Below, one piece after another: positions 9,003-46,691 of a stretch of DNA of 47,296 nucleotides (its first letter is position 1; each line of letters begins with the position of its first letter). The position numbers and the translations under genes were made by a program. Origin of the DNA: an uncultured Candidatus Saccharibacteria bacterium (GTDB lineage Bacteria; Patescibacteriota; Minisyncoccia; UBA6257; UBA11618); the NCBI GenBank assembly GCA_964363475.1, contig CAYIII010000003.1, positions 1-47,296 of the forward strand. Reading direction: 5' to 3'. The notes under the pieces are model-generated. The model worked only from the letters and a program-made list of their open reading frames with translations. It was not told the DNA's origin and did not search any database.

Positions 9003-9005
9003 AAA

Positions 9006-10013: not shown

Positions 10014-10019
10014 AAAAAA

Positions 10020-12066: not shown

Positions 12067-12070
12067 AAAT

Positions 12071-12412: not shown

Positions 12413-12424
12413 TTTAGTTCGCTT

Positions 12425-22165: not shown

Positions 22166-22198
22166 AATCCGCCTTACGATGGGCGGATTGTTTTTTTT
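22166..22198 (+). terminator. Rho-independent terminator after csrA
   Basis: AATCCGCC / GGCGGATT 8-bp stem with an 8-nt loop, followed by G plus a T8 run. Confidence 0.8.
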
Positions 22199-29716: not shown

Positions 29717-29723
29717 CTTTTTT

Positions 29724-31148
29724 ATGTGGAATAAATTTTTCAAAAATACTTTTTGGTTGACCGCCGGAGAAATCGGCGGCCGTTTATTAAGAATCGTTTT
29801 GGTTCTCTATGCGGCCAGAGTTTTGGGAGTAGCTAATTGGGGAATTTTTTCCTACGCGCTAAGTTTAGCGGCGCTATTTACAATAATCGCGGATATTGGA
29901 TTGGGAGCGGTGATGACAAGAGAAATAGTAAGAGATCCCGAAAATAAAACTCAATATTTATCTAATTCTCTTATTATTAAAACGGCGCTTATAATTTTAA
30001 CTTCGATAGCAATAATTTTCGTCACCCCCCTAATAACTAATTTAACTCTTTCAAGTACGCTATTAATTTTTATAGCCCTGCTGGTTATAACGGATAACAT
30101 CCGCTTATTCACCTCATCTTTGAATCGAGCTCTGGAAAAAATGCACTGGGAAGCAATTGCAAATATTATTACACAGCTTTCAATAATGATACTGGGGGTG
30201 TGGATTCTTATAAAAAATCCTACCGCCGAAGGATTAGGAATCAGTTATCTAGCGGGAAGCGCCATAGGAGCAATATTTTCCCTATGGACCGTAAAGGAAT
30301 ATATTAAAAATTTTTTTGGACGCCTTGATAAAATCTTAATTAAAAGATTATTAGAATCTTCATGGTCAATAGCTCTATTAGGAGTACTGGGAAGCATAAT
30401 GCTTAACACAGACATAATAATGTTGGGTTGGTTAAGAGGCGCAGAGGATGTTGGATACTATTCTTCAGCTCAAAAAATTATTTTTACTCTTTATGTTCTG
30501 CCGTCACTAATAGGCACCGCCGCCTTTCCCAGTCTAGTTAAATTGGCTAATAAAAATAAAGAAGGATTTAGAGAACTTTTAGAAAAATCACTTAAAATAG
30601 CTTTCCTTATTGCCATACCAATAACTATCGGGGGCTTAGTAATCGGATCTGAACTAATGAGTATATTTTTTGGCAAAGAATATCTGATTGCCTCTACAAC
30701 ATTTAAAATATTACTTTTAAGCTTGGTACTTGCTTATCCCACCACGATATTGGGCAACGCTCTTCTCGCTTATGACCAAGAAAAACAATTTTTGAAATAT
30801 GCCGGAGTAGCGACTTTAGGCAATATAATTCTTAATTCTATGTTAATTCCTTTTTGGGGCGCTGAAGGAGCCGCCATTGCAACTGTAGCAACGCAAATTA
30901 TCAGCAACGGTCTTATTTGGTGGAAATTAAAGAAATTTAATCAATTTACCATCGTGAACAAACTTTCAAAAATTTTTATATCCAGCGCAATAATGGGGGC
31001 GGTAACTATATTAATGTATTACTGGCAAATTAATTTCTTCCTTATTATTTTTACATCAATTGCCGTTTATCTTGGAACATTGTACTTAATAAAAGAGTCA
31101 ATTATATTTGAACTAAAAAATTTTATATATGCTAGACCATCTAATTAA
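29724..31148 (+). CDS. Wzx-type oligosaccharide flippase (MOP superfamily)
   Basis: 474 aa with about 12-14 TM helices. Polysaccharide-biosynthesis-protein-like N-terminus (FKNTFWLTAGEIGGRLLR). Confidence 0.8.
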   Translation: MWNKFFKNTFWLTAGEIGGRLLRIVLVLYAARVLGVANWGIFSYALSLAALFTIIADIGLGAVMTREIVRDPENKTQYLSNSLIIKTALIILTSIAIIFVTPLITNLTLSSTLLIFIALLVITDNIRLFTSSLNRALEKMHWEAIANIITQLSIMILGVWILIKNPTAEGLGISYLAGSAIGAIFSLWTVKEYIKNFFGRLDKILIKRLLESSWSIALLGVLGSIMLNTDIIMLGWLRGAEDVGYYSSAQKIIFTLYVLPSLIGTAAFPSLVKLANKNKEGFRELLEKSLKIAFLIAIPITIGGLVIGSELMSIFFGKEYLIASTTFKILLLSLVLAYPTTILGNALLAYDQEKQFLKYAGVATLGNIILNSMLIPFWGAEGAAIATVATQIISNGLIWWKLKKFNQFTIVNKLSKIFISSAIMGAVTILMYYWQINFFLIIFTSIAVYLGTLYLIKESIIFELKNFIYARPSN

Positions 31149-32385
31149 AGAAAAAAAGGCTCGGGTGGCCGTGGTTGGATTAGGATATGTTGGGCTTCCA
31201 ACAGCGATTGCTATAGCCGAAGCCGGATTTAAGACCGTGGGAATTGATATTAATGAACAAAGAGTAAAACAACTTAATAACAATCGCAGTTTTATAGCCG
31301 AAATTTCAAATGAATCAATTAAAAAGGTTAGTGGTAATTTTTACGCAAGCACTGACTGGAATGAAATAAAAAAATGCAATGTGATTATCGTTGCCGTGCC
31401 CACTCCTCTGACTAAAAATAAAGCTCCGGACACTTCGTTCATAGAAAATGCCGCTAAAAATATTGCCTCCAATTTAAAACCAGAAACATTGGTAATTTTG
31501 GAAAGCACCACTTATCCGGGAACAACAGAAGAATTAGTAAGACCAATTCTGCCAAAATGTTACTTGGCTTTTGCTCCTGAAAGAATTGATCCCGGTAATA
31601 AACAATATAAATTGCAAAATGTGCCAAAAGTGGTTGGTGGTATAGACAAACAATCAACAGAGCTGGCCTGCAGCTTCTACAGTAATTTTGTTGAAAAAGT
31701 TATACCAGTTTCATCGCCCGCGACAGCTGAAATGGTAAAACTATTGGAAAATGTTTTCCGTTTGGTAAACATATCCATGATTAATGAATTAAAAATGCTG
31801 GCCGACAAAATGCATATTGATATGTACGAAGTGATTGAAGCCGCCAAAACCAAACCTTACGGCTTTATGGCCTTTTACCCCGGACCTGGAGCCGGCGGTC
31901 ATTGTATTCCTTTAGACCCGTTTTATTTATCCTGGAAGGCTCGGGAGTTGGGATTCTTTGCTAGATTCATTGAACTGGCTGGAGAAATTAACGAATTGAT
32001 GCCTCATTACGTCGTAACAAAAATTATTTCCGCTCTTAATCACAAAAGGAAGGCCATTAATGGATCAAAAATATTAGTGTTGGGCGTTGCTTATAAAAAA
32101 GATATTGACGATTCCAGAGAATCCCCATCATTAGAAGTTATTAAAGATTTAATGGGAAAAAAGGCGCAAGTAATTTACAATGACCCCCATATTCCACAAA
32201 TAGAAATTGATGGGGGTAAAATTTACTCAACCCCGCTAACCACAGAAATTTTAAAGAAGGTGGATTGCGTTGCCATACTAACCGACCACTCTTCTTATGA
32301 TTATCCAACCATAATTAAGAAAGCCAAGCTAATAGTTGACATTAGAAATGCTACCAAGATAAGCCGTGATAATATTATTAAGTAA
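31129..32385 (+). CDS. Nucleotide-sugar 6-dehydrogenase (UDP-N-acetyl-hexosamine dehydrogenase type)
   Basis: NAD motif VAVVGLGYVGLP and catalytic Cys motif GGHCIPLDPFYL, typical of the WbpA/TviB/WecC branch. Confidence 0.88.
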   Translation: MLDHLIKEKKARVAVVGLGYVGLPTAIAIAEAGFKTVGIDINEQRVKQLNNNRSFIAEISNESIKKVSGNFYASTDWNEIKKCNVIIVAVPTPLTKNKAPDTSFIENAAKNIASNLKPETLVILESTTYPGTTEELVRPILPKCYLAFAPERIDPGNKQYKLQNVPKVVGGIDKQSTELACSFYSNFVEKVIPVSSPATAEMVKLLENVFRLVNISMINELKMLADKMHIDMYEVIEAAKTKPYGFMAFYPGPGAGGHCIPLDPFYLSWKARELGFFARFIELAGEINELMPHYVVTKIISALNHKRKAINGSKILVLGVAYKKDIDDSRESPSLEVIKDLMGKKAQVIYNDPHIPQIEIDGGKIYSTPLTTEILKKVDCVAILTDHSSYDYPTIIKKAKLIVDIRNATKISRDNIIK

Positions 32386-34211
32386 TGTGTGGGATATCGG
32401 GAAAATTTTATTTTGACAAACGATCGGTTTCAGAAGCCGAGTTAAAAATAATGGCGGATGCCATCAGTCATCGCGGCCCAGACCAGTTGGGCATTTTTAA
32501 TAAAAACAATATTGGCTTTGGCTTTAGACGATTATCTATTATTGACCTGTCCCCCGCCGGCAATCAGCCGATGTCTGACGCGGAAGGTTTGGTTTGGATT
32601 GTTTTTAATGGAGAAATCTATAATTTTGTTGCTTTAAGGGAGGGATTAGAAAGAGATGGGGTTCAATTTAAATCAAAAACCGACACCGAAGTTATTATCC
32701 ATCTCTATAAAAAATACGGGGTTGATTGCTTAAAAAAGTTAAGGGGGATGTTTGCTTTTGCAATTTGGGACGAAAATAAACGGCAATTATTTTTAGCCAG
32801 AGATAGATTGGGAAAAAAGCCCCTTAAATATTATGTAGATAAAAATGTTTTTATTTTTGCTTCCGAACTTAAATCAATTCTTAAAAATCCGGAAGTCAAA
32901 AAAGAGCCGGATCAAACCGCTATCGCAAATTATTTAAGCTTTCAATATACCCCTTCTTCAAGCACCGGCTTTAACGGCATTAAAAAATTGCCGCCAGCCC
33001 ATTATTGTTTAGTAAAAGAAAATGGGGAATTAGAAACTCATCGCTATTGGAATTTAGATTATCGAGAAAAATGGCAATTATCCGAAGAAGAATGGGTTGA
33101 TAAAATTACTGATAAGTTGGGGGAATCGGTAAAATTACGAATGATGTCCGATGTGCCGCTCGGAGCTTTTTTGTCGGGAGGAGTGGACTCATCTGCCATC
33201 GTTGCTCTAATGAGCAAGTACTCAAACAGCCCAGTTAAAACATTTTCAATTGGCTTTAATGAAGCAACGCATAATGAACTGCCATACGCAAAAACAACGG
33301 CAATAAAATTTAATACTGAGCACAGGGAATTTATAGTAACTCCAAATATATTAGAAATAATTCCAAAAATTGCTTATTACTATGAGGAACCGTACGCCGA
33401 TTCTTCCGCCATACCAAGTTGGTATTTAGCCGAAACAACAAAAAAATATGTAACCGTTGCTTTAAATGGCGATGGCGGCGATGAAAATTTCGCCGGATAT
33501 TTGCGTTATAATTTTTATCAAATAGTTAATAAGCATCCGGTGCTTGCGACTATTTTTGGTCCATTAGCAGTCCGGCTCTTTCTAAAACCAAAATGGCGCC
33601 AAGAAAAAGCGATAAAATTAATTAGGGAACTTAAAAAGGGTTCGTCAGCCGCAGAAAAATATTTTCCTCTCATTGCTTATATAGATAATTATCCAAATCA
33701 TGCCATTGAAATTCTTAAAGAGAAGTTTAATGAGGCCTTAAGCAATGATTCTTTAGACCAATTATTGTGGGTGGATATTAATTCGTATTTGCCAAATGAT
33801 TTATTAGTGAAGATGGATATTGCTACCATGGCACACTCACTAGAAGCTCGCTCCCCTCTTTTAGATCACGAATTTATGGAATTAACCGCTAAAATACCAA
33901 GTTCTCTTAAATTAAGGGGAGACACTAATAAATATATTTTTAAAAAAGCGCTGGAAAAAATATTGCCGGCAGAAATATTAAACAGGCCCAAAATGGGTTT
34001 TGCAATGCCGGTGGAAAGTTGGTTCAAGAAAGAATTATTACCACATTTAAAAGCGACTATTTTATCATCAAAAGCCATTAGTCGTAGTCCACTACCGAAA
34101 ATTGAAATAGAAAGATTAATAGAAAATCATGTATCGGGAAAAAATAATTACGCCAATCAATTGTGGACACTATTAATGCTTGAGGAGTGGTATAAACAAT
34201 ATTTTGATTAA
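32385..34211 (+). CDS. Asparagine synthase (glutamine-hydrolysing)-family amidotransferase
   Basis: N-terminal nucleophile MCGI, and the PP-loop SGGVDSS in AFLSGGVDSSAIVALM. 608 aa. Embedded in a glycan operon. Confidence 0.88.
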   Translation: MCGISGKFYFDKRSVSEAELKIMADAISHRGPDQLGIFNKNNIGFGFRRLSIIDLSPAGNQPMSDAEGLVWIVFNGEIYNFVALREGLERDGVQFKSKTDTEVIIHLYKKYGVDCLKKLRGMFAFAIWDENKRQLFLARDRLGKKPLKYYVDKNVFIFASELKSILKNPEVKKEPDQTAIANYLSFQYTPSSSTGFNGIKKLPPAHYCLVKENGELETHRYWNLDYREKWQLSEEEWVDKITDKLGESVKLRMMSDVPLGAFLSGGVDSSAIVALMSKYSNSPVKTFSIGFNEATHNELPYAKTTAIKFNTEHREFIVTPNILEIIPKIAYYYEEPYADSSAIPSWYLAETTKKYVTVALNGDGGDENFAGYLRYNFYQIVNKHPVLATIFGPLAVRLFLKPKWRQEKAIKLIRELKKGSSAAEKYFPLIAYIDNYPNHAIEILKEKFNEALSNDSLDQLLWVDINSYLPNDLLVKMDIATMAHSLEARSPLLDHEFMELTAKIPSSLKLRGDTNKYIFKKALEKILPAEILNRPKMGFAMPVESWFKKELLPHLKATILSSKAISRSPLPKIEIERLIENHVSGKNNYANQLWTLLMLEEWYKQYFD

Positions 34212-34212
34212 T

Positions 34213-35283
34213 ATGAAGATACTGCACCTAATCACAGACCTCAAAATGGGTGGTACAGAAGTTTTTTTAAGCAAAATTCTGCCGAAAATAAAAAACCACA
34301 GTCATATCGCGGTCTCTCTTACCAAAAAGAGAGATATTGGGTTGGATATAGAAAAAAATGGCATTAAGGTCTATGAATTACATTCGGGCAAATGGTTTAG
34401 CCCCATTTCTATAATAAGGTTTAAAAAAATTATCTCCACGGAAAAACCAGATGTTTTAATAACTTATTTAATTCATGCGGCTATTTTTGGAAGAATTTTT
34501 GGGAAGGTATTTGGAATTCCTAAAATTATTTGCATGATAAGGTCACAACTAAGAAAAAAAAGGCACGGCTTTTATTTTTTAATAGAAAAATCCACTCAAA
34601 GTTTAGTGGATTATTTTATAAGCAATTCCGTATCATTAAAAAACTTTTATAAAGAAAAGTTGGGAATTCCCGAAAAAAAATTAAGAGTCGTTTATTCTCC
34701 AATAGATACAGACGATAATTCTTCCCTAGCTCAATTTAATAAAGAAGATTATTTTATTGTGGGAACGGTGGGAAGGATTGCTAAAGAAAAAAGACAGCAA
34801 GATATTATTCGGGCCATTAAACTTTTAAGGGATGGGGGATGTAAAATTAAACTTATCGTCATCGGAGATGGGCCAGAAAAGAAACATCTTCAAGATTTAA
34901 CTAAAAAATTAGAACTTAATAATGAAATTATATTTAAGGGAGAACAAAAAGAAGTTTATTTTTGGTACAAAACTTTTGATGTTTTTGTTTTAGCAAGTAA
35001 TTACGAAGGAATGTCTAACGCTCTTTTAGAAGCAATGTCTATAGGATTACCGGTAATCACCACCGATATTCCCGAAAATCAAGAAATTATTAAAGATGGT
35101 GAGACGGGACTTCTTGTTCCAGTACATAATCCAAAAATAATAGCTGAAAAAATAAAATTAATTATGGAAAATCAAGAATTAAGAAATAGGTTATCCGTAA
35201 ATTCCAAGAAATTTATTTCTGATAATTTTTCTTTGGCAAGTTTTCTTGAAAAAATCTCTCAAATAATAGAATTAAATAATTAA
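34213..35283 (+). CDS. GT4-family (GT-B) glycosyltransferase
   Basis: E-x7-E-type C-terminal motif (NYEGMSNALLEAMSIGLPVITTD). Start set at MKILHLITD (ATG 1 nt after the asnB-like stop) instead of the track start at 34180. Confidence 0.85.
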   Translation: MKILHLITDLKMGGTEVFLSKILPKIKNHSHIAVSLTKKRDIGLDIEKNGIKVYELHSGKWFSPISIIRFKKIISTEKPDVLITYLIHAAIFGRIFGKVFGIPKIICMIRSQLRKKRHGFYFLIEKSTQSLVDYFISNSVSLKNFYKEKLGIPEKKLRVVYSPIDTDDNSSLAQFNKEDYFIVGTVGRIAKEKRQQDIIRAIKLLRDGGCKIKLIVIGDGPEKKHLQDLTKKLELNNEIIFKGEQKEVYFWYKTFDVFVLASNYEGMSNALLEAMSIGLPVITTDIPENQEIIKDGETGLLVPVHNPKIIAEKIKLIMENQELRNRLSVNSKKFISDNFSLASFLEKISQIIELNN

Positions 35284-36427
35284 CATGTTCTTTAGTCATG
35301 CCATGATGGCATCCTATAAGAAAACTTCTTTCCATGATAAAATCGGCTACTGAATAATTTTTTTGACTTGTCTTGTGATTAATATTTTTGAAGCCCGGCT
35401 GTTTTAAAATATTGCCCGTAAATACTGGACGCGTCTGAACATTATTTTTTTCTAAAAAGGTTACCAAGCCCAATCTAGAAAATGGAGCGTCATTCTTTAT
35501 AGTTAATGGGAAGGCCAACCAATTTGTAGCAACTTTATCGTTTTGTTTTGGCAATTCAAACCAATTTTTGTACTTCTCAAAAAATTTATGAAGATAAGTA
35601 AAATTTTTATGACGAATATTAGAAAACTTTTTTAATTTTTTTAGTTGTTCTAAAGCAAAAGCGGAGCTAATTTCTAAAGGCAGAAAATTATAGCCAATTT
35701 TATTAAAAATAAATTTTGAATCGTACGCAAAATTGTCTATTTTATAACCAAATCTTTTTTCTATATCTTCCGACTCGTCTGCTATAGAAGACATTCTTCC
35801 CCATCCCCTTAAAACTTTAAGGTCAGTAACCCATTCCTTATTATTAACACAAATCATGCCGCCGCCGCCTGCGCCGCTAATAATATGCGACCCATAAAAA
35901 CTGGTAGTAGAAATATCAGAATAAAAGCCGGTGGGTTTTCCCTTGAAAGTAGCGCCTAAAGTATCACAAGAGTCTTCAATAAAAACTAATTTATATTTAT
36001 CCGCTATTTTTCTTAATCTTTGCATGTCAGGCACATTACCCAACAACAGCGGTATAAATAGGGCTTTGGTATTTTTGGTTATATGCTTTTCTATATCATC
36101 AACATTAATAATATAAGTTCCCGGCTCCACATCAATAAAAACAGGATTTAATTTTTTTTGAACAATGGGGGCGATAGTGGTGCTGAAAGTTAAAATTGGC
36201 GTAATAATTTCTGAACCTTCCGGCAGCTGTAAAATTTCTAAAGCCAACAAATTAGCAGAGGAACCAGAATTAACCATTATTCCAAATTTTTTTCCAAACA
36301 AAGAGGCGATTTTATTTTCAAATAATTTGGTTTTCTCTCCCATTAAAGATTTTCTGTCCCTTAAAACCCTGGAAACCGCGTCTATTTCTTTGTCGTCATA
36401 AATAAAACCCGCGTAACTTACTCTCAT
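35213..36427 (-). CDS. PLP/PMP-dependent sugar 3-dehydratase of the DegT family (ColD/E1-like; catalytic Lys replaced by His)
   Basis: VNSGSSANLLALE motif. The active-site string SFYGSHIISGAGGGG aligns with SFQGAKIAVMGEGG of the neighbouring aminotransferase, giving K to H. Only three Cys, so no obvious Fe-S motif. Confidence 0.7.
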   Translation of the reverse strand: MRVSYAGFIYDDKEIDAVSRVLRDRKSLMGEKTKLFENKIASLFGKKFGIMVNSGSSANLLALEILQLPEGSEIITPILTFSTTIAPIVQKKLNPVFIDVEPGTYIINVDDIEKHITKNTKALFIPLLLGNVPDMQRLRKIADKYKLVFIEDSCDTLGATFKGKPTGFYSDISTTSFYGSHIISGAGGGGMICVNNKEWVTDLKVLRGWGRMSSIADESEDIEKRFGYKIDNFAYDSKFIFNKIGYNFLPLEISSAFALEQLKKLKKFSNIRHKNFTYLHKFFEKYKNWFELPKQNDKVATNWLAFPLTIKNDAPFSRLGLVTFLEKNNVQTRPVFTGNILKQPGFKNINHKTSQKNYSVADFIMERSFLIGCHHGMTKEHVNYLILLFERFFQENLPKKNYQK

Positions 36428-36428
36428 A

Positions 36429-37103
36429 TTAATTGGGGGCGTCTAACCGCATTTGGAGAAAATAACGCTCGGCCTTTTCTAAAGTTAAATCTTCTTCCCA
36501 CTGAACCATATTGGGTTTTTCTTCACGACGCAAAGGAATCAACTTAAACTTTTTAAAACCGCAGCGTTCATACAATTTTATTGCTCTCTCGTTATCAGCC
36601 AAAACTTTTAAATAAAGAATTTTTACTCCCAATTTATTAAAAGCCCAGCCGTCTAATGATTCTATCGCTAATTTCATTACTCCCGGAAATAAATTATCTT
36701 GCCCCCTTACAATATTATCAATCTCACAAGACTCTTCTTCCCAATTAAAACGATAAAGACCGACATGACCAATGGGCGCATTAGTGCGCCCAACATCCCT
36801 TACAAAAAACAAAATCCTATCAAAAAGTTTAATAACTTGATTTTCCAGCCACCCCCGCGTTCCTTCCAAAGTAACTTGAAACTGCGACGGAAAATAGGGT
36901 TGAACTTTTTCACGCCATTCAGCCAGAGTTTTGATTACTTCAGGGTCAAAAACATTAAAAGCTGTTATAGGATCTAACATTATCACAGGAGCATCCGGTA
37001 TATAAATAAACTGCGGTTTTTCAGTGGACGAGCCCAATCCATACTTTAACTTTGCTAATTTCTGAATAACACCTTGACGAAAACGTTGAGAATTTTGATC
37101 CAT
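36429..37103 (-). CDS. GNAT-family N-acyltransferase (probable amino-sugar N-acetyltransferase)
   Basis: C-terminal GNAT core (NERAIKLYERCGFKK). Sits 2 nt from the aminotransferase stop and 1 nt from the dehydratase start. Confidence 0.6.
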   Translation of the reverse strand: MDQNSQRFRQGVIQKLAKLKYGLGSSTEKPQFIYIPDAPVIMLDPITAFNVFDPEVIKTLAEWREKVQPYFPSQFQVTLEGTRGWLENQVIKLFDRILFFVRDVGRTNAPIGHVGLYRFNWEEESCEIDNIVRGQDNLFPGVMKLAIESLDGWAFNKLGVKILYLKVLADNERAIKLYERCGFKKFKLIPLRREEKPNMVQWEEDLTLEKAERYFLQMRLDAPN

Positions 37104-37105
37104 TT

Positions 37106-38275
37106 TTAGCCCGCCTTTCTTGTTAATAGTTCTTTAACATTACGGGCAATATAATCCACTTGTTCCTCGGTTAGCATTACACCGCTTGGCAGGTTAATGC
37201 CATTTAAACTGACATAATAAGCATTAGGATTATTTACTTTAATTTTTCCGGCATACATCGGCAACATGCTAATAGGATAAAAAAATTGGCGAGTGTCAAT
37301 ATTGCGTTCTTTTAGAGCCCTGCGCAGTTCATCGCGTTGAAGTGGAGATTTTTTTCCTAAAATAATAGAAGTCATCCAGCAATTAACTCTGGAGTTTTTA
37401 TGCTCATAATTCATTGTGATTAAGTTGCGCGGAAGATCGCTTAATCTTTGCCAATACCATTGAAAAATTTGCCGTTTCTTAGCCACTAACTCTTCAATTC
37501 TTTCAACTTGAGCCAAGCCAAGAGCTGCTTGCAAATTAGAGAGCTCGTACATAAAACCAATCTCGTTGTGCCAAAACTGTTTTTTAGAATCTTTGCCGTG
37601 GTCATAAAGACTGCGGGCGCGCTCATCCCATTCTTGAGAATTAGTCACCAAAGCGCCCCCCTCGCCCATAACAGCAATTTTAGCGCCCTGAAAGCTGAAT
37701 GTTCCAATGTGCCCCCAAGTTCCGGCTTTTTTATTTTTATAAATAGTGCCTAATGCCGGACAAGAATCTTCCACAACAAGCAAATTATGCTTATTAGCAA
37801 TGTCCATGATTTCTTCCATGCGCGGAGAAGAACCGTACATCCAAACAGGCATAATAGCTCTTGTCTTTGGCGTAATAGCTTTCTTGATGGCATCGGGGTC
37901 AATACACCAAGTCACGGGATCAATATCAACAAAAACGGGCTTAGCGCCGGTATATTCAACAACATTAGAACAAGCCACATAAGTCATATCAGGAATAATC
38001 ACCTCATCACCCGGCTTAATATTAAAAAGAGCTAAAGCCAAATGCAAAGCATGCGTCCCCTTAGTCAAGCCAAGGCAATGTTTAACGCCTACATAATTCG
38101 CTAATGTTTTTTCAAACTTAACCACATAATCATCCATATTAAAATTCCAGCCATTCAAAACAGCATCTTCAACATAAGTTCTTTCCCGTTCAGTAATAGA
38201 AGGGCCGGCAGTTAAGACGAGTTTGTCGGGCTTATCTATTGGTTTTACTTTTTTTGATTTTGTTTTTTTTATCAT
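37106..38275 (-). CDS. DegT/DnrJ/EryC1/StrS-family sugar aminotransferase (catalytic Lys present)
   Basis: TKGTHALHLAL, VEDSCPALG and FSFQGAKIAVMGEGGALV (Schiff-base Lys). Confidence 0.85.
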   Translation of the reverse strand: MIKKTKSKKVKPIDKPDKLVLTAGPSITERERTYVEDAVLNGWNFNMDDYVVKFEKTLANYVGVKHCLGLTKGTHALHLALALFNIKPGDEVIIPDMTYVACSNVVEYTGAKPVFVDIDPVTWCIDPDAIKKAITPKTRAIMPVWMYGSSPRMEEIMDIANKHNLLVVEDSCPALGTIYKNKKAGTWGHIGTFSFQGAKIAVMGEGGALVTNSQEWDERARSLYDHGKDSKKQFWHNEIGFMYELSNLQAALGLAQVERIEELVAKKRQIFQWYWQRLSDLPRNLITMNYEHKNSRVNCWMTSIILGKKSPLQRDELRRALKERNIDTRQFFYPISMLPMYAGKIKVNNPNAYYVSLNGINLPSGVMLTEEQVDYIARNVKELLTRKAG

Positions 38276-38330
38276 TTTGCCAAAAGATTAACTAACAAGA
38301 TAATGAAAATTCAATTAAATAGCAAGCATA

Positions 38331-39266
38331 TTAAATTACTTTTTCCCCAATAATTTCTCTAATAATATATCTCGGCCGATGTTTAATTTCAATAAAAATT
38401 TTGGCCAGATATTCACCAATAATACCAATACCTAAAAGCTGAACACCGCCTAAAAATAATATTAAAATTACAATTGTGGGAATACCGCGCGGAGCGCCCG
38501 GAATTATAAAATAAAGCGATAAATTAATAATTACACCCAAAGAAGACATCACCACCACAACAAAAGCCAACTTAGAAACCCATTCTAATGGTTTAAAGGA
38601 GAAATTAATAATAATAGTTTTTGCCCACCACAAAGCCACTAGAAAACTTGTATTAGATTCTCCCGCCTGACGTTTGTCTCTAATAAATTCCACGCCTGTT
38701 TGTTTAAAACCAACGAAAGCTCTAACGCCACGCAAATAAAAATCTCTTTCATCAAATTTGATGATTTCATTTATCGCTTGCCTGTCCATCAAACTAAAAT
38801 CGCCAGCATTAAGAGGAATATTAATATAGGCCATTTTTTTTAAAAGCCGATAAAAAATTGTCGCTAAAATATTACGCAACGGCGCTTGTTTCATTCCCCC
38901 TCTTATTCCATAAACAATTTGATAACCAATCCGCCACTTGTCTATAAATAAGGAGATAATTTCCGGCGGATCTTCCATGTCGCCAGCCAATAAAACTGCG
39001 GCATCGCCAGAACAATTTTTGAGTCCTGCCAAATAACTTGGTTGAGGAGAGCCAAAATTACGGCTCATTAATAAAACTTTTACCCTTGAATCCTGTCGGC
39101 AAAGTTGCCTATAAATTTTTTCCGAATCATCTACGGAAGCATTATCAACATAAATAATTTCCAATTCATATTCTAAATTTTTAAACACTTCAATAAGCCG
39201 TTTGTACATTAACAAAATATTTTCTTCTTCGTTATAACAGGCAATAATAACAGAAACCTTGTTCAT
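38331..39266 (-). CDS. GT2 polyprenyl-phosphate glycosyltransferase (ArnC/GtrB/DPM1-like)
   Basis: [22 protein letters not shown] and the D-x-D region, plus two C-terminal TM helices, which is typical of lipid-phosphate-sugar synthases. ATGA overlap with the rfbG stop. Confidence 0.8.
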
Positions 39267-40237
39267 GCTGAAAATTCTTTATACCAGTTAATGGTTTTGA
39301 TTAGGGCCTCCTCTAAAGAAAATTGCGACTTCCATCCTAATATTTCTTTTGCCTTTTTAGCTGACAGATACTGATGAGGAATTTCGTTTTTTGCCTCATT
39401 CATAATTTTAGGACGAAATTTGCTGTTCATTAACTTTATAATAATTTTTACCAAATCAATAACAGTCACTTGTATTTCGTTGCTAAAATTAAACGCATGG
39501 CCATGAATTTTTTTATCATCCATTTTTTCTGCCAGTTTCATATAAGCCATAACCGCATCTTCAACATAAAAATAATCACGAATAAATTTTCCGTTACTGC
39601 GAATAATTGGCGACTCATTCATTAATAATGACTTGATTGTTCCGGGAACAATTCTATTAAAATTTAAGTCGCCTCCGCCAAAAAGATTACCGCAACGAGT
39701 AATGGCAACCGGTAATTTATAAGTTTCATAATAAGAGCGCGCAATTAAATCAGCCGCGCTTTTAGAAACATCATAAGGAAATCGGCCCTCTAAAGAGGTC
39801 TCTTCGTTATAAGGTAATTTCTCGTGAATCCCATATGCCTTATCTGAAGATGCCACTACGACTCTTTTAATTAAAGGCGAACGGCGACAGGCCTCTAAAA
39901 CATGCCAAGTTCCGCGGATATTGGATTCAAAAGTGGACAAAGGGTTACGATTGGCAACAGTTACTATAGTTTGAGCGCCAACATGAAAAACTGTGTCAAT
40001 TTCATATTCGCCCAAAGACCTCTCCAATAAAAAATAATCATTTAAATCTCCGTGAACGGCAACAATTTTATTAAAATAGTCGTTCTTTGATAAGTTAGAA
40101 TGTGGAACATTGTCACGCACCAAACAAATCACATGAGCGCCTGCCTCAACTAAATGCTTTACCAACCAAGACCCCAAAAGACCGGTAGCTCCTGTCACAA
40201 AGACATTTTTATTTTTCCAAAAATTTAATTTACTCAT
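39263..40237 (-). CDS. rfbG: CDP-glucose 4,6-dehydratase
   Basis: [21 protein letters not shown]-terminus is typical of RfbG. SDR catalytic YDVSK. Start set at MSKLNFW, whose ATG overlaps the upstream stop (ATGAGTAA), instead of 40255. Confidence 0.82.
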
Positions 40238-42035
40238 TTTTTTCTTGAACGGCAATCATATTAGCCGCAACTTCTTCGGGGGGTAAAAATGGATACATAT
40301 TTTCTAAAGGATTGCCAAATTGAGTTTTGGGATGAAGAGGCTGGTCGGAATTAATCTTCACGACACAAACAATAGGTCCCGGCTTCAATAAAACATCTTT
40401 AATTTTTTGCTTTAAATTATTGTGGGTTTTAATTTCAACTACCGGCAAGCCATAAGATTTAATCACCTTACAAAAATCGGGACAACTATAACCAGATTTT
40501 TTATCAACGCCATAATAGCGCCCCTCAAATACTTCTTTTTGAAAACCAATAATAATGGCGTAGCTATCGCTATTTAACAAAAATACTTTAACCGGAATTT
40601 TATAATGAGCCATAGTTTGTAATTCCTGAATATTTATCTGCATTCCACCATCGCCAATAATGCAAATCACTGGCTTTTTATTCCCTGCCGCGATAGCCGC
40701 GCCTAATGAAGCCGCGAAAGAATATCCCATTGGCGAATTGCCCATTGCCGAAAATACAAATTGATTTTTTTTAGGCGCGAATCCTTGAATTGTCCAGGTT
40801 AGGTTTCCGCCGCAATCAGGAATTAAAATACAATTATCCGGCGCAACTTTAGATAAGGCGTCTATAAAGAAATAAGCATTAATATTATTTTTCTGCTTTT
40901 GATATTCTGGCAAACAAATCGGATAGCGTTTTTTCCATTCTATAATTTTTGCTATCCAATTATTTATTGCGACTGCGTCGTTTGTTAGTTTAATTTTGGC
41001 CTTATTCCAAGCTGAAAAAAAATCCCGTAAATCAGCATTGATAGGTAAATCAATTTTCATGTCCCGCCTCTTATTTAATTCATAAGGATCAATGTCTATA
41101 ACAATTTTTTTGGCGTGAGGAGCAAATTCATTTCTCTTGCCGCCAGTTTGGCGGGTATCCAATCTTGAACCCAACGCAATCAACAAATCACAGTTTTGAA
41201 CCGCAAAATTAGCCGCCCTGTGGCCATAAACACCAAAAGGGCCGATGTAAAGAGGATTGCTATCGGGAATAATGCTGAAACCGCTCCAAGATGTAACTAC
41301 CGGAATATTTAATTGCTCAACTAATTGTCTGGTTTCTTCTACTAAATTAGCGTAACGCAAACCACCGCCAACAAGAATCAATGGCCGTTTAGATTGATTT
41401 AATAAATTTAAAATGACCGCAATATTAATATTGGATTTATTTTTTTTATTCTGTTTAGGAATAAAGCCAACTAATTTCTTCGGGTCAATTTCTACCCTTT
41501 GGATATCCATAGGAATATCCAACCAGACCGGTCCCGGCCTGCCCTCAAACGCATAATAAAGCGCTTTATCTAAATGATATTTAATTTCTTCGGGCTTTTT
41601 TATTAAAACAGCATACTTAGTAATCCCCTTGACCATACTAATAATATCTGTTTCCTGAAAACCGACTTGTCTTACTTTAGAACAATGAGGTGATTGCGTT
41701 GACTCCCAACTGTTAACCTGTCCGGAAATATTGATAACGGGAATGGAATCAAACCACGCGCAACAGGTGCCGGTAATTAAATTAGTAGCCCCGGGACCGC
41801 TGGTTGCCATAGTGACGCAAATATTTTTTTTAACGCGAGTATAGGCCTCCGCCGCCATGGCCGCCGCCTGCTCATGCTGAAAACATATAAATTTTATATC
41901 ATCCCTTCGCCCAACGGCATCCACCATAAAAGCGCAAGCGCCGCCAATAATTCCAAAAACATGCTCCACGCCCTTATCAGCCAGGTAAGAAGCGATATAA
42001 TCACAGACCTTCATAAAACCTAAATAAATTAACAA
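40230..42035 (-). CDS. Thiamine-diphosphate-dependent enzyme of the acetolactate synthase large-subunit family (candidate YerE-like sugar carboligase)
   Basis: About 600 aa with a three-domain layout. ThDP motif [14 protein letters not shown]...LNSDSY. N-terminal Pyr domain ([13 protein letters not shown]...[12 protein letters not shown]). The true start may be the internal Met ([11 protein letters not shown], about 42014). No ilvN, ilvC or ilvD nearby. Confidence 0.8.
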
Positions 42036-42073
42036 AAAATTGCTGTTTTGTCAAAAAAGGGGGGCTTGCGGGA

Positions 42074-42775
42074 CTAACTGGACCAAACTCGCCACGGACT
42101 GCTTTCTGCCCAAATCTTATTGGCATCTAATAAGTCACGGTAAGTATCAACAGCAAACCAAAAGCCGGAATGCAAATAAAGAGCGAGTTGCTTATCTTTT
42201 GCCAGAGGGTCAAAAACATCTTCAATCATAGAATCTTTTTTTATGTAATCAAAAATCTTTTTAGAAAAAACCATAAAACCGCCATTAACCATATCTGATA
42301 ATATCGGCTTCTGCTGAAAGCTCGTAACTAAATTATTTGAATTAACCGCCACCAAACCAAAACGATGACGCGGATGAACGCCTGTTATGGTAGCAAGAAC
42401 ATTTTTTTTCTGATGAAATTCTAGAAGAGAACTAATATGAACATTCGCCATCCCATCCCCATAAGTAAGCATAAAATTATCGCTCTTTATAAGAGATTTT
42501 ATCCTTCTTACCCGCTCTCCCGTAAGAGATGTCAAACCCGTATCCACTATTCTAATATTGAATCCGTCTTTTTTGTTTTTACTAAAATAATTTTTAATGA
42601 AATCCATTTTATAGCCAGCGGCTAAAATAAAGTCATTATATCCATAGTGAGCGTAAGTTTTCATAATATGCCACAGGAGGGGCTTGCTACCGACTTCTAC
42701 CATCGGTTTTGGCCGATATTGAGTTTTGGGCATCAAACGAGTCCCCTCGCCTCCGCATAAAATTACTGTTTGCAT
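42074..42775 (-). CDS. rfbF: Glucose-1-phosphate cytidylyltransferase
   Basis: MQTVILCGGEGTRL...RPKPMVEVGSKPLLWHIMKTYAHYGYNDFILAAGYK closely follows the RfbF/DdhA pattern. Confidence 0.88.
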   Translation of the reverse strand: MQTVILCGGEGTRLMPKTQYRPKPMVEVGSKPLLWHIMKTYAHYGYNDFILAAGYKMDFIKNYFSKNKKDGFNIRIVDTGLTSLTGERVRRIKSLIKSDNFMLTYGDGMANVHISSLLEFHQKKNVLATITGVHPRHRFGLVAVNSNNLVTSFQQKPILSDMVNGGFMVFSKKIFDYIKKDSMIEDVFDPLAKDKQLALYLHSGFWFAVDTYRDLLDANKIWAESSPWRVWSS

Positions 42776-42866
42776 ATATCTGGCAATACTATAATCTATT
42801 ATAAATTATGGCAACTCAATAGCGTTGCCCTCTATTGTTAGCTGTGCTAAAAAACAAGAAAGACAT

Positions 42867-44690
42867 ATGAACATCTTAAGAATCCATTGGTTGGGAATAC
42901 TTTTATCGCTAGTTGTAAGTTTAATCGCTTTTTTACCCAACGCCATAATTTATTACCAATTACAAAAAGATGGATTACCTTATCATCCGTTAACCGCCGC
43001 CGGCTATTTTGATGAGATGATTTTTTATGGCCCCCACATCAAAGAAGTCATAGAAGGTAATTGGATAAATGACGATACCGATTTAGTTGAGTATCTCGAC
43101 CATCCCAGTATTTTGCCTTTACTGCCGCCGATAATTTTAAGATTGATTTTCTTTTTCACCGATTCAGTCTCCACTATATTTGCTTGGAATGACCTCATAC
43201 TGCCCCCCATTTCTTTTTTAATAATTTACCTTCTTGGCTATCAAATCAGCCGAGACAAAATTTTCAGCAGTTTTTTTGCTTTTTCAATAGTGGGGATTTC
43301 TATCATTGGCGATGTCTTGCCCTTAGAAAAACTTTGGATAAGTGGCTGGGACGAATTTATAAAATTCGCCCAGCCAATGTATATCGCCCGCACCTATAAT
43401 TACGCTCTTACTTTTATTTTCTTTGCTCTAGCCGTATTTTTCACCCACAGACTTCTTTCTGCCGACAAATTTTGGGACAAAATTGTGGCCGCCGTCATAT
43501 CAGGACTTCTGATTCACATGCATTATTTTTACGGAGCTTATTTTGGCATGGGTTTAATTTTTTTAACAATCCTTCTTTTTTTAAAAAAAGATTTTCTTAA
43601 GGCAAAAAATATTTTATTTGTCTTAATTATTATGGAGCTAATGGCCGCTCCCTATTTATTTCAAATGGCTGCTTATAGAATTGCCAATCCCCATTGGTTT
43701 GAAACATTAGTAAGATTAGAAACTGACGTGGGAAGACATATTTATTTAAATATCTATAAACATTATATCCTTTATGCGGTTTTGGTCGCTTTATTAATTT
43801 TTGTTGGAAAAAAAGTTAACAAAACAAACACGGCGCTTCTTTTTTCAAGTTTGATTATCGCCGGCTTTGTCGGTCTTAATCTTCAAGTAATTTTAGGGTA
43901 CTCTTTAATGCCCAATCATTGGCTAAGAACTAATGTGTTCGGCTTAAAATTTGCCGCCTTAACTCTGTTTTGGTGGTTAAAAGATTTTTGGTGGTTCAGT
44001 AAAAAATACTTTTATCATCTGACTGTCTTTGGATTGACAAGTTTTATAATACTTTCAATTATTAATCAGGCGGCTTACGGCTTTAACAATTACAAATTAT
44101 TTACTATCCCCAGTTACGCAATAAATTCTTTTAATTGGCTTAAAGAAAACACCCCAACTAATTCCGTAGTAATGACCCCCTCTACCGTTACCAATAACTA
44201 TTTGCCTGTTTACACTAATAATAAGATTTTTATGGGCTCCGGCTATAGATCAATAGCTGAAAGCTCCGAATTGGAGGAAAGATTACTGTCAACTTATAAC
44301 ATTTTTGGAGTTGATTCTAAAATTTTATCAGATGCCTTTAACCCCAAAGAGCTTAGCGAGCATAAAGATAATAAAAAAATCCCCTACGAAGCGGGCTTTC
44401 AATACTCGCCTTCACTGATTGAATATATATACAATAATTTATATATCAATATTTCAATTGATCCCCGGTATAATAAACCGCCTATGCCCACATCAGTTGG
44501 TGAAAAACTTGTAGAAAGATACGAAGAGCTAAAGACCGATTTGGCAACTATTGAATCAAAATATGAAGTTGATTATATCTATATCGGTCCTTTAGAAAAG
44601 GAAATTGCTCGAGCTAATTTTAATGAAATGCCCGATTTGACTAAAGTTTACGATCAAGATGAAGTGCAAATTTATAAAATTAATAAGTAA
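42867..44690 (+). CDS. Large polytopic membrane protein, GT-C-like glycosyltransferase candidate (ArnT/PMT-like)
   Basis: About 607 aa from ATG 42867 (track start 42825 is a TTG). At least 10 hydrophobic helices plus a soluble C-terminal domain of about 170 aa. An acidic FDE motif lies in the first extracytoplasmic loop (AAGYFDEMIFYGP), as in GT-C enzymes. Confidence 0.5.
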   Translation: MNILRIHWLGILLSLVVSLIAFLPNAIIYYQLQKDGLPYHPLTAAGYFDEMIFYGPHIKEVIEGNWINDDTDLVEYLDHPSILPLLPPIILRLIFFFTDSVSTIFAWNDLILPPISFLIIYLLGYQISRDKIFSSFFAFSIVGISIIGDVLPLEKLWISGWDEFIKFAQPMYIARTYNYALTFIFFALAVFFTHRLLSADKFWDKIVAAVISGLLIHMHYFYGAYFGMGLIFLTILLFLKKDFLKAKNILFVLIIMELMAAPYLFQMAAYRIANPHWFETLVRLETDVGRHIYLNIYKHYILYAVLVALLIFVGKKVNKTNTALLFSSLIIAGFVGLNLQVILGYSLMPNHWLRTNVFGLKFAALTLFWWLKDFWWFSKKYFYHLTVFGLTSFIILSIINQAAYGFNNYKLFTIPSYAINSFNWLKENTPTNSVVMTPSTVTNNYLPVYTNNKIFMGSGYRSIAESSELEERLLSTYNIFGVDSKILSDAFNPKELSEHKDNKKIPYEAGFQYSPSLIEYIYNNLYINISIDPRYNKPPMPTSVGEKLVERYEELKTDLATIESKYEVDYIYIGPLEKEIARANFNEMPDLTKVYDQDEVQIYKINK

Positions 44691-45831
44691 TGAATTTCTG
44701 GTGGAATATTTTAACGGAAGCCAGAACATTAACAATCTTTGAAACAGCTTGACCGTTGCCATAAAGATAATCGCGCTGATAACGGCCGCGCTTAATCTGT
44801 TTTAGAATAGCTTCGCTTATTTGTTGCTTATTAAAATCAACATCAAGAATATTTTTAGCGCGCTCTCTTGCCATCTGCCGATTTCCAACAATCACTGCCG
44901 GCACCCCCAAAAATGAGCCTTCGCGAATAAAACTGCTGGAATTGCCCACGCAACAGATCGCGTTATTAACTAATAGTAAATAATTTTCCGGCGACAGATT
45001 TTTTACAAAAAAAATGTTTGATTTTTCTTTTTCTCGAAAAACTCTAATAATTTTAGAAATCTCATCTGAACCTGCATCAACGTTAGGCCAAAACCAAATA
45101 GCAGGCACCTGCAAATCATTTATAGTCTCTAAAAGCAATTGCGTTCTTTTGCGGCCTTCTCCATAATCTGTAGTCACGGGATGAAAAGAAACTACTAAAT
45201 AGGACTTGGTTAAATCAATTGGTTGGCCAACCCCTTTAGGCAATATTTTTTTGGCTAAAGAAGCGGTTATTTTTAAATTAAGGCCTTTAATTAAGTCAAG
45301 CGACGGGCAACCCGTTGCATAAACCATTTTAGGATCTTCTCCCATTTTAATAATTCTTTCAGCGGTATTCTTATTAGTAGTGAAATGCACATGAGCTAAT
45401 TTTGTAACCGCGTGACGAACATGTTCGTCAATTGTGCCACTAACTTCTCCTCCCTGATTATGCGCCACCATGATATTTAAATAACTGGCGGCAATCGCGC
45501 CCGCCAACACTTCATAACGATCAGCATGTAAAAATACAATGTCGGGTTTTAGATTGCTGAATATTGTGGTTAATTCCAGTATTATCAAACCAGTCGTTTT
45601 GGCCATAGCGATTGGATTTTCTCCCTCAATAACAGAATAAAAAACAGAATTAATTTTAAATCCGTCTTTGATTAATAAACCAGATATTTCACCATAATTG
45701 CGTAAAACAGCCGAAGCTCCAACTACTAATTGCAACTCTAACTGCGGATGCTTTTTAATAGCCAATAAAACTGATTTTAATCTTCCATAATGAGCGCGGC
45801 TTGTGATAACTACACAAATCTTTCTTTTCAT
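44680..45831 (-). CDS. neuC: UDP-N-acetylglucosamine 2-epimerase (hydrolysing), NeuC family
   Basis: KICVVITSRAHYGRL, HADRYEVLAGAIAA, HNQGGEVSGTIDEHVRHAVTKLAHVHF. Confidence 0.85.
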   Translation of the reverse strand: MKRKICVVITSRAHYGRLKSVLLAIKKHPQLELQLVVGASAVLRNYGEISGLLIKDGFKINSVFYSVIEGENPIAMAKTTGLIILELTTIFSNLKPDIVFLHADRYEVLAGAIAASYLNIMVAHNQGGEVSGTIDEHVRHAVTKLAHVHFTTNKNTAERIIKMGEDPKMVYATGCPSLDLIKGLNLKITASLAKKILPKGVGQPIDLTKSYLVVSFHPVTTDYGEGRKRTQLLLETINDLQVPAIWFWPNVDAGSDEISKIIRVFREKEKSNIFFVKNLSPENYLLLVNNAICCVGNSSSFIREGSFLGVPAVIVGNRQMARERAKNILDVDFNKQQISEAILKQIKRGRYQRDYLYGNGQAVSKIVNVLASVKIFHQKFITY

Positions 45832-45832
45832 A

Positions 45833-46666
45833 TTAATTTCCTAAACGATTTGTGTATTTTTTTCTTACTGATAATTCTTCTTTAAACATACCCCTATTGC
45901 CATCGCCCATCATCTCCGCAACCAAATCACGCCAATCACAAATTTCCTTGAATACTCCCGGCTCGTCGGCTATTAAATGAGTCGTAATGGGTTTTGCTTT
46001 TTTATCATCAGAGGTCTTATGAAATGCCTGCGGCAAATGCCTGCTTAAAGTAAAATGTTTTTCTATAAAATCGGCCCCCATAGCTATAGCGATTTTAGAG
46101 GCCTCACTTCCCTGATAGTGGTCCGACAATCCCCATTTTGGCGCCAACGACTGCAACCATATCATTCTTTTTAAATTAACTTTATTTTTGGGCAACGGAT
46201 AAATAGAGACGCAATGCAAAAGAGCGTAATCGTGTCCTTTTAATACTTTTGTGGCCAGCTCAACTTCTTCCGGATGCGACATGCCGGTGGAAACAATAAC
46301 GGTCTTAAAATTCTTTCCGCATTCTTTTAACATCTCCTCCGATTTGCAATAAGTGCTGGGAATTTTGATGGTGTCCAAACCCAGTCCTTTCAGGAATGGA
46401 ATCCGCCCTCTATCAAAAATACTGGTTAAAAACTTGACTCCATATTTTTTACATTCATTGATTAATTCCCTATGAGCCAAATCTGACAACTCTAATTTTT
46501 TATAGCGCGCCTTGTCCGGGTCATTGTCTTTGACATTTTTTGCCTGCCACGACTGAAATTTAACATAATCAACGCCCGCCTCGGCGGCGGCTTTAATCAT
46601 TGCTTTGGCTAATTCCAAATCGCCATTATGACTGGAAGCTATCTCGGCGATAATTTTGGTTTTCAT
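45833..46666 (-). CDS. neuB: NeuB-family nonulosonic-acid (sialic-acid-type) synthase, TIM-barrel only
   Basis: IIAEIASSHNGDLELAKAMIKAAAEAGVDYVKFQ, STGMS, LHCVSIYP, SDHYQG and EKHFTL. Start set at MKTKIIAEI (46666) rather than 46711. No room for a C-terminal SAF domain. Confidence 0.78.
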   Translation of the reverse strand: MKTKIIAEIASSHNGDLELAKAMIKAAAEAGVDYVKFQSWQAKNVKDNDPDKARYKKLELSDLAHRELINECKKYGVKFLTSIFDRGRIPFLKGLGLDTIKIPSTYCKSEEMLKECGKNFKTVIVSTGMSHPEEVELATKVLKGHDYALLHCVSIYPLPKNKVNLKRMIWLQSLAPKWGLSDHYQGSEASKIAIAMGADFIEKHFTLSRHLPQAFHKTSDDKKAKPITTHLIADEPGVFKEICDWRDLVAEMMGDGNRGMFKEELSVRKKYTNRLGN

Positions 46667-46691
46667 GAAGAGTGATAATACAATAAAAAAT

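Follow-up and report, generated by a model that had tools for sequence, protein, structure and literature searches.

A candidate yersiniose-type branched deoxy-sugar operon coupled to lipid-carrier export in a Saccharibacteria contig

The yersiniose A pathway, the closest described relative of the system reported here, comprises DdhD, DdhA, DdhB and DdhC (E3, Ep, Eod and E1, respectively), the thiamine diphosphate (ThDP) enzyme YerE, and YerF. We compared this pathway with a seven-gene operon at positions 35213-42775, minus strand, of a 47-kb stretch of DNA (hereafter the window, to which the operon coordinates refer) from an uncultured Candidatus Saccharibacteria bacterium (contig CAYIII010000003.1). 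With a probability of about 0.65, we read the operon as a yersiniose-type branched deoxy-sugar pathway coupled to export on a lipid carrier, its chemical steps being proposed from homology and gene context. On this reading, the known yersiniose pathway occurs here in a variant form, and no new kind of system is involved.

YerE-like enzymes are in demand as biocatalysts that give access to chiral tertiary alcohols. Two YerE-like ketone-accepting carboligases are structurally known, JanthE (PDB entry 8rph) and PpYerE (PMC12188165, PMC12247030). Among sugar 3-dehydratases, E1 and SpnQ require an Fe-S cluster and a reductase; with ColD, the intermediate is hydrolysed and pyridoxamine 5'-phosphate (PMP) is regenerated from glutamate (PMC8987622). 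A review mentions that over 200 YerE-like clusters have been surveyed in silico. Of the papers listed by our literature search on the candidate phyla radiation (CPR) and acetolactate synthase, none discusses these genes.

A sequence-only reading of this DNA had described seven co-directional minus-strand genes. We found all of these open reading frames (ORFs) in the order claimed, along with the motifs quoted for them: that of the ThDP protein, GATGLLGSW and YDVSK in the short-chain dehydrogenase/reductase (SDR), SFQGAK in a 389-aa DegT protein and SFYGSH in a 404-aa DegT protein. The gene families that it named agree with the Pfam and NCBIfam assignments. Its cautious inference, a sugar linked to cytidine diphosphate (CDP) that is 3,6-dideoxygenated, C-branched and/or aminated, and N-acylated, stands in light of the YerE clade, the His position and the conserved neighbourhood described below.

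The ThDP enzyme and its probable CDP-sugar partners

The ThDP protein is encoded at 40230..42014 on the minus strand. It had been put at roughly 600 residues (601), and an ORF does extend back to TTG 42035, but the likelier start is ATG 42014, giving 594 aa, a start shared with homologues. The protein matches Pfam TPP_enzyme_N, TPP_enzyme_M and TPP_enzyme_C, with an intact middle domain (140 bits). Its best NCBIfam models are those of the large subunit of acetohydroxyacid synthase (AHAS) and several sources name its homologues 'acetolactate synthase', as would be expected of a genuine anabolic or catabolic acetolactate synthase lying in a sugar operon by chance. However, the protein falls under every AHAS equivalog cut-off (best 420.6 bits against 538.35), and among solved structures 8rph (JanthE, 374 bits) and 5ahk (345 bits) score ahead of all AHAS (270 bits for E. 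coli AHAS I, about 240 bits for yeast or plant AHAS). We take 5ahk, deposited as 'acetolactate synthase II', to be the PpYerE structure. Alignment places a loop insertion after GQVN in the window protein, JanthE and 5ahk, but not in AHAS, and RLDTRQTG, a PpYerE-like RxDxRQTG motif, stands where AHAS reads RFDDR. GDGGMQ...LLNS and HEQ, which contains the catalytic Glu, align to the reference enzymes, and E48 and G454-D455-G456 are invariant in the ThDP family alignment.

Our genome scan, a sample and not a census, covered at least 80 ThDP loci (loci carry L numbers below), and a neighbour-joining tree was computed on 92 sequences with 100 bootstraps. The window protein, its CPR homologues, JanthE, PpYerE and the Yersinia protein of L055 form a YerE clade (100/100 bootstraps) that stands apart from the clade containing E. 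coli and yeast AHAS (100/100). By tblastn, sugar-gene neighbours were present at 25 of 33 YerE-clade loci among the matches listed (28 of 33 at weaker thresholds); among the AHAS-clade matches listed, 2 of 53 loci had a weak, isolated SDR match only. The ThDP gene of the window shares its operon with RfbF-like, RfbG-like and 3-dehydratase genes, an arrangement kept in L089, L007 and L006, and the 47-kb contig carries no ilvN, ilvC or ilvD. With structure scores, tree, loop insertion, motif and the constant company of sugar genes all against it, a chance acetolactate synthase is very improbable. By sequence, the protein is a YerE-like carboligase and not an acetolactate synthase, and its grouping with sugar carboligases, which the sequence-only reading had anticipated, holds.

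The two genes proposed to supply the CDP-sugar flank the ThDP gene. The RfbF/DdhA-like nucleoside triphosphate (NTP) transferase (42074..42775, minus strand, 233 aa; Pfam NTP_transferase) has as its best NCBIfam match G1P_cyt_trans (TIGR02623; 233.5 against a cut-off of 300.25), in a match broken in two where about 22 residues are deleted. Its top PDB match is the Salmonella glucose-1-phosphate cytidylyltransferase 1tzf at 181 bits, the next scoring 72, and its orthologues in L089 and L007 are 75-76% identical. The RfbG/DdhB-like protein, an extended SDR resembling CDP-glucose 4,6-dehydratase (39263..40237, minus strand; start most likely ATG 40237), best matches NCBIfam CDP_4_6_dhtase (220 bits, cut-off 278) and, in the PDB, the CDP-glucose 4,6-dehydratases 1wvg and 1rkx. 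Its SSDKAYG and PYDVSK align with TSDKCYD and PYSNSK, keeping the Ser/Thr-Asp-Lys and YxxxK signature. Among solved structures, both proteins thus appear closest to CDP-glucose enzymes.

The predicted His-type 3-dehydratase

The last gene of the operon (35213..36427, minus strand) encodes the 404-aa DegT protein. The alignment bears out the claim that His occupies the catalytic Lys position, with SFYGSH aligned to SFYPAH of E1 (H220), and the protein does have only three Cys, at 154, 193 and 373. Against the PDB, it scores 258 bits with E1 (3bcx) and 196 bits with ColD; the RfbH model gives 335 against a cut-off of 423, and identity to Yersinia E1 is 33%. Of the E1 [2Fe-2S] ligands C193, C251, C253 and C261, only the C193 equivalent is kept, the E1 segment RDCYCAPGCDNTC aligning with RMSSIADESEDIE. 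The same pattern extends to the best 120 homologues (60-89% identity, 395-455 aa), where the His is present in 120/120 and C251, C253 and C261 in 0/120.

In a tree, the His-type proteins fall into three lineages, E1, ColD and a clade of window-type proteins of about 400 aa (98/100 bootstraps). The window-type clade is sister to ColD alone in 0/100 bootstraps and linked to E1 in 45/100. The 404-aa protein had been treated as an E1/ColD-type member and its family is annotated as E1 in several sources, but it is an orthologue of neither and belongs to a separate lineage. The His is present in every 3-dehydratase adjoining a YerE-clade gene. All four Cys are kept in the non-CPR 3-dehydratases beside YerE-clade genes and in one Peregrinibacteria protein; three are lost in the CPR 3-dehydratases of the window, L001, L003, L004, L008 and L009. 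Because the cluster-free forms of L003, L008 and L009 are nested within the E1 clade (100/100), the Fe-S ligands have been lost at least twice. These three (L003 11959-13290, L008 12926-14251 and L009 5839-7167) are 3-dehydratases of about 440 aa, 47-48% identical to Yersinia E1, in which C251/C253/C261 are replaced by Y/F/R.

The sequence-only reading had also argued from a missing E3/AscD-type reductase gene. The gene is indeed missing, as tblastn with Yersinia E3 finds nothing in the window, and Fer2, FAD_binding_6 and NAD_binding_1 are found in 0 of the 37 scanned window ORFs of at least 150 aa, the few unscanned ORFs being too short for E3. As an argument, however, this is weak, since E3 is undetectable near most YerE-clade loci with a Cys-keeping E1; the Yersinia query matches no other locus, those with a Cys-rich E1 included. 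The presence or absence of E3 was dropped as an uninformative correlate of the Fe-S cysteines, and the loss of the cysteines is the real signal. Since the Fe-S ligands are missing, we infer that the 404-aa protein would not use E1/E3 electron transfer and would instead follow a ColD-type, glutamate-driven mechanism.

The 3' ends of the 3-dehydratase gene and of a family 1 glycosyltransferase (GT1) gene (34180-35283, plus strand) overlap by 71 nt, at 35213-35283, and L089 has an identical 71-nt overlap of the same two genes (11145-11215).

Proposed lipid-carrier export, amination and overall pathway

The family 2 glycosyltransferase (GT2) gene (38331..39266, minus strand; Pfam Glycos_transf_2) matches PgfS and ArnC in NCBIfam, and the protein scores 202 bits with GtrB sll0501 and 110 bits with ArnC in the PDB. 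With C-terminal transmembrane (TM) segments at 233-251 and 265-283, it is probably a polyprenyl-phosphate glycosyltransferase of the GtrB/ArnC type. The system reaches past the seven genes to a divergent gene at 42825..44690 (plus strand), which occupies the same divergent position in L007 and L089 and encodes a 621-aa membrane protein with about 11 TM helices and a C-terminal domain. This protein has no Pfam or NCBIfam match. AlphaFold2 (AF2) gave a predicted local distance difference test (pLDDT) score of 45 with a 5-sequence alignment and of 92.6 with 93 sequences from a profile search, in which the family numbered 892 representatives. All 16 Foldseek matches of the AF2 model at E<=0.001 are GT-C enzymes (TM-scores 0.38-0.49), among them STT3, PglB, AftA, DPY19 and ArnT. 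Of the ten family members with N-terminal extensions, seven are GT2 fusions (P0273, P0281, P0299, P0300, P0304, P0330, P0385); the others (P0274, P0283, P0269) are methyltransferase fusions in two cases and a GT1 fusion in one. Between TM1 and TM2, F62-D63-E64 is invariant in the five closest homologues, presumably resembling the PMT 'DE' motif, and E89 alone is near-invariant in the 93-sequence alignment. The model points to a GT-C-fold glycosyltransferase, which we propose as the user of the lipid-linked sugar.

In the pathway that we propose, the RfbF-like enzyme would make CDP-glucose and the RfbG-like SDR would convert it to CDP-4-keto-6-deoxyglucose. The His-type DegT protein would then remove the 3-OH to give CDP-4-keto-3,6-dideoxyglucose, by ColD-like chemistry in which a PMP Schiff base undergoes His-mediated elimination, the enamine is hydrolysed and PMP is regenerated from glutamate. 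The YerE-like enzyme would decarboxylate a 2-oxo acid (pyruvate by default) and add the acyl anion to C-4, leaving a tertiary alcohol that bears an acyl branch. The GtrB/ArnC-like GT2 would place a finished sugar on polyprenyl phosphate and, after flipping, the divergent GT-C enzyme would pass it to a surface acceptor; because the host is of the CPR type, a lipopolysaccharide (LPS) O-antigen acceptor is not to be assumed. The remaining two proteins, a Lys-containing DegT aminotransferase and a GNAT N-acetyltransferase, would either aminate and N-acetylate the branch ketone or make a separate 4-acetamido sugar.

The aminotransferase (37106..38275, minus strand, 389 aa; SFQGAK; Pfam DegT at 376 bits) is similar to perosamine synthase and LegC. 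Its best PDB match is GDP-perosamine synthase 3bn1 (290 bits), a ring C-4 aminotransferase, and its best NCBIfam models are LegC and then PseC (315 against 420 and 250 against 423). Orthologues in L089, L007 and L006 are 64-93% identical. The GNAT protein (36429..37103, minus strand, 224 aa; Pfam Acetyltransf_3 and Acetyltransf_1) matches NCBIfam PseH weakly (34, cut-off 93) and, in the PDB, diamine acetyltransferases only (37 bits). Its gene comes after that of the aminotransferase in every case (80% identity in L089, 49% in L007 and 40% in L091).

L091 carries the nearest relative of the window aminotransferase outside the subclade, in the order NTP transferase, RfbG-like SDR, SDR, aminotransferase (51%), GNAT (40%), further genes, GT2, a 664-aa protein and a Cys-rich E1. 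Because this cluster has no ThDP gene, its aminotransferase and GNAT must act on a ring ketone. These homologues, together with the similarity of the aminotransferase to ring C-4 enzymes, suggest that part of the 4-keto intermediate is diverted to a separate 4-acetamido-3,4,6-trideoxyhexose, and the adjacent operon with Bac_transf, Wzx and GT1 genes could consume such a second sugar. This diversion is our tentative choice, at somewhat less than even odds, and ranks slightly above a linear route to a single product.

On the linear route, the aminotransferase would aminate the C-1' ketone of the branch and GNAT would acetylate the amine, replacing the missing YerF reductase, so that CDP-4-C-(1-acetamidoethyl)-3,6-dideoxyhexose would be the sole sugar loaded by the GT2. 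By our reasoning, 3-dehydratase, ThDP enzyme and then aminotransferase is the only order that would let all three carbonyl-dependent enzymes use one molecule. In agreement with this, the window subclade has one SDR and no YerF homologue, the operon has a single GT2, and the aminotransferase, GNAT and 3-dehydratase genes are translationally coupled. Precedents are amycolose, a sugar with an N-acylated alpha-aminoethyl branch whose synthesis involves a ThDP enzyme, and acetyl branches modified by 'transaminases'. Against it, the closest characterised relatives of the aminotransferase act at ring C-4, homologues of both proteins work in the ThDP-less L091, and our analysis turned up no DegT enzyme that uses a branch ketone of this kind. 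We regard the linear route and its product as possible, each with about one chance in three. Identities of the GT2, NTP transferase and SDR to L091 and to CPR loci follow overall divergence and do not separate the two accounts. A Yersinia YerF query found no homologue at any other locus; the second SDR of type-A CPR loci may play the YerF role.

The aminotransferase, GNAT and perhaps the SDR might instead belong to a legionaminic/pseudaminic-type nonulosonic acid pathway, outside the CDP-sugar pathway, with the NeuC (44680-45831) and NeuB (45833-46711) homologues encoded beyond the GT-C gene. NeuC passes its equivalog cut-off, LegC is the top NCBIfam model for the aminotransferase, GNAT weakly matches PseH, the SDR also matches LegB, and NeuB/NeuC occur with a ThDP gene in the window, L007, L001, L004, L010 and L011. 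The legionaminic and pseudaminic scores, however, are all far under their cut-offs (LegB, 159 against 475, besides those given above), and the SDR is nearer to CDP-glucose 4,6-dehydratase than to LegB. NeuC and NeuB alone suffice for a Neu5Ac-type pathway, and lie in a different transcription unit, past the divergent GT-C gene. In L091, the aminotransferase and GNAT genes come directly after NTP transferase and RfbG-like SDR genes without NeuB/NeuC, and our scan of the window turned up no CMP-sugar synthetase. We consider this assignment unlikely, at less than one chance in ten. The NeuB homologue itself (292 aa) matches positions 2-241 of a 329-position model and is without the C-terminal SAF domain. 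A methyltransferase gene adjoins it, and the contig ends 20 nt beyond that gene.

Several points weigh against the yersiniose-type pathway as drawn. Every NCBIfam score of the seven proteins lies below its curated equivalog cut-off, so we infer nucleotide and sugar specificity from homology, and the RfbF-like protein lacks about 22 residues that RfbF has. The sole basis for a ColD-type mechanism is the missing cysteines. Ketone acceptance in vitro has not been shown for some YerE-like enzymes (PMC12247030). In related loci, an Asp/Ala-type aminotransferase, HpcH aldolase or PanB-like gene adjoins the ThDP gene, hinting at a donor other than pyruvate. If a second sugar is made, the aminotransferase would compete with the ThDP enzyme for a shared intermediate, yet there is a single GT2.

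Two extensions of the yersiniose-type pathway go further. It is doubtful, with the odds clearly against it, that the product is a sugar new to any organism: a 3,6-dideoxyhexose with an aminated and N-acetylated C-4 branch (4-C-(1-acetamidoethyl) type), made via a cluster-free 3-dehydratase of the third lineage and displayed on the CPR surface by a polyprenyl-phosphate carrier and an unclassified GT-C enzyme. Highly unlikely is a bolder variant in which NeuB/NeuC would supply a long alpha-keto-acid donor to the ThDP enzyme, yielding a branched higher-carbon sugar.

Relatives and neighbouring genes

The neighbourhood is conserved, with the operon syntenic in three related genomes (L089/L090, L007 and L006). 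L089/L090, whose 3-dehydratase is 89% identical to that of the window, has the order NeuC, GT-C (minus strand), NTP transferase, PhyH, ThDP, SDR, GT2, NUDIX, aminotransferase, GNAT and 3-dehydratase, then convergent GT1, AsnB-like, NDP-sugar dehydrogenase, Wzx and Bac_transf genes, as in the window. The sequence-only reading had put all junctions of the operon at 1-8 nt. This is correct for four of the six, namely the 8-nt ThDP/SDR overlap (ATGAGTAA), the 4-nt SDR/GT2 overlap (ATGA), the 2-nt aminotransferase/GNAT gap and the 1-nt GNAT/3-dehydratase gap, but not for NTP transferase to ThDP (59 nt) or GT2 to aminotransferase (55 nt). These two gaps (42015-42073 and 38276-38330) are the sites of the PhyH and NUDIX genes in L089/L090. 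The PhyH-family dioxygenase gene (2928-3713 in L089) also occurs in L007 and L006, the NUDIX gene lies at 7513-8064 in L089, and the window appears to have lost both.

In more distant CPR loci, the ThDP, GT2 and His-type 3-dehydratase genes are retained, and a class I/II enzyme resembling Asp/Ala aminotransferases and a second SDR replace the aminotransferase and GNAT. Named homologues at 50-62% identity come from Yanofsky-, Ryan- and Levybacteria, and the ThDP and 404-aa families each have hundreds of close homologues. The pathway had been called unexpected in a reduced genome; since many CPR contigs carry the ThDP/SDR/GT2/3-dehydratase module, its presence here is unsurprising.

Some YerE-like genes, including those of outgroup loci, have other neighbours. 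In L014 (Elusimicrobiales, 9248-12855), the YerE-like gene lies between an HpcH/HpaI aldolase gene and an SDR gene in an ErwE/ErwI/ErwF-type layout, and in L011 (Bacteriovoracales, 8889-11770) it is preceded by a ketopantoate-hydroxymethyltransferase-like (PanB-like) gene. These layouts suggest 2-oxo-acid donors other than pyruvate; HpcH- and PanB-like neighbours echo the donor-supply logic of ErwE (PMC9306805). L012 (7855-12832), from a Pacearchaeota metagenome-assembled genome (DPANN), has a YerE-like gene at 44% identity, a class I/II aminotransferase gene (42%), a short-chain dehydrogenase gene and a radical SAM/SPASM gene; no CDP-sugar genes were detected in it, pointing perhaps to horizontal transfer or to another acceptor.

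Convergent with the sugar operon, a second glycan operon at 28400-35283 encodes a Bac_transf initiating transferase, a Wzx-type flippase, an NDP-sugar (ManNAc-type) dehydrogenase, an AsnB-like amidotransferase and the GT1, and might make the acceptor glycan or draw on a second CDP-sugar. Its AsnB-like protein is closest to the XrtA/PEP-CTERM-system amidotransferase. The other genes of the contig are housekeeping genes (PBP2, MreB/C, RRF, MurA, RpoA, S4/S11, a split transketolase and GAPDH), and the window has no tRNA or Rfam match. Rod-shape machinery is present in this presumably ultrasmall bacterium, with two MreB paralogues (4389-5438, 9006-10013), MreC (2256-2939) and a PBP2-type transpeptidase (39-1835). 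The sole Pfam match of an 883-aa protein (22197-24848) is to two lamin-tail domains (LTD), and a 217-aa ORF lies on the opposite strand within its gene (22870-23523). ORFs 3041-4399 (plus strand, 452 aa) and 15404-16897 (minus strand, 497 aa) match no Pfam family at E<=1e-5.

CPR/Patescibacteria spend their lives attached to host cells and rely on surface contacts, and to our knowledge almost nothing is known experimentally about their cell-surface glycans. From this operon and hundreds of related CPR loci, we predict that many of them make C-branched deoxy sugars. CPR genomes of this type are not known to make branched-chain amino acids, and 'acetolactate synthase' labels in such genomes should become sugar carboligase. 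The CPR YerE-like clade, in which the donor-supply partners differ (Asp/Ala-type aminotransferase, HpcH aldolase, PanB-like), is a candidate untapped pool of biocatalysts, and the very large family of cluster-free His-type 3-dehydratases would extend ColD-type chemistry to CDP-sugars.

Comparison with known systems

JanthE and PpYerE are the best full-length structural matches of the ThDP enzyme and share with it the loop insertion after GQVN and the catalytic Glu, but identity over the aligned residues is no more than about one third. The window protein has the canonical GDG where JanthE has CDG, and LNS in place of the NN of the others.

Like the 404-aa protein, ColD and E1 have a DegT fold with His replacing the Schiff-base Lys. 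The protein resembles ColD in being without the four-Cys [2Fe-2S] motif, and E1 in its CDP-glucose gene context, as opposed to the GDP-mannose pathway context of ColD. CDP context together with presumed ColD-type chemistry is not found among the three 3-dehydratases that PMC8987622 lists as characterised.

In the two-step glycosylation systems GtrB/GtrC, ArnC/ArnT and DPMS/PMT, as in the window, a GT2 with C-terminal TM segments is paired with a GT-C-fold enzyme. The window differs from the GtrB and ArnC systems in that its GT-C family has no Pfam or NCBIfam model and the donor would be a CDP-sugar and not a UDP-sugar. The amycolose branch of kibdelomycin and amycolamicin, an acetyl group installed by a ThDP enzyme, transaminated and N-acylated, has the chemistry of the linear route. 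Its ThDP enzyme, however, comes from another superfamily (alpha-keto acid dehydrogenase type), C-3 carries the branch, and the actinomycete product is a secondary metabolite rather than a surface glycan.

The nearest comparison remains yersiniose. In Yersinia vastinensis (L055), genes for E3, NTP transferase, 4,6-dehydratase, E1, YerE and a YerF-like SDR are followed by those for a GT2, 37% identical to the window GT2, and a 765-aa membrane protein. A yersiniose locus therefore already combines YerE with a lipid-phosphate GT2, part of the combination that the sequence-only reading had taken as undescribed. Both loci gather RfbF-like, RfbG-like, His-type 3-dehydratase and YerE-like genes in one cluster, with ThDP enzymes of one clade. 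The window differs in being without E3 and a YerF-type reductase, in having a 3-dehydratase without the Fe-S cysteines, and in carrying the Lys aminotransferase and GNAT. What sets it apart are thus the cluster-free 3-dehydratase of a third lineage, the aminotransferase/GNAT pair in place of YerF and the unclassified GT-C partner.

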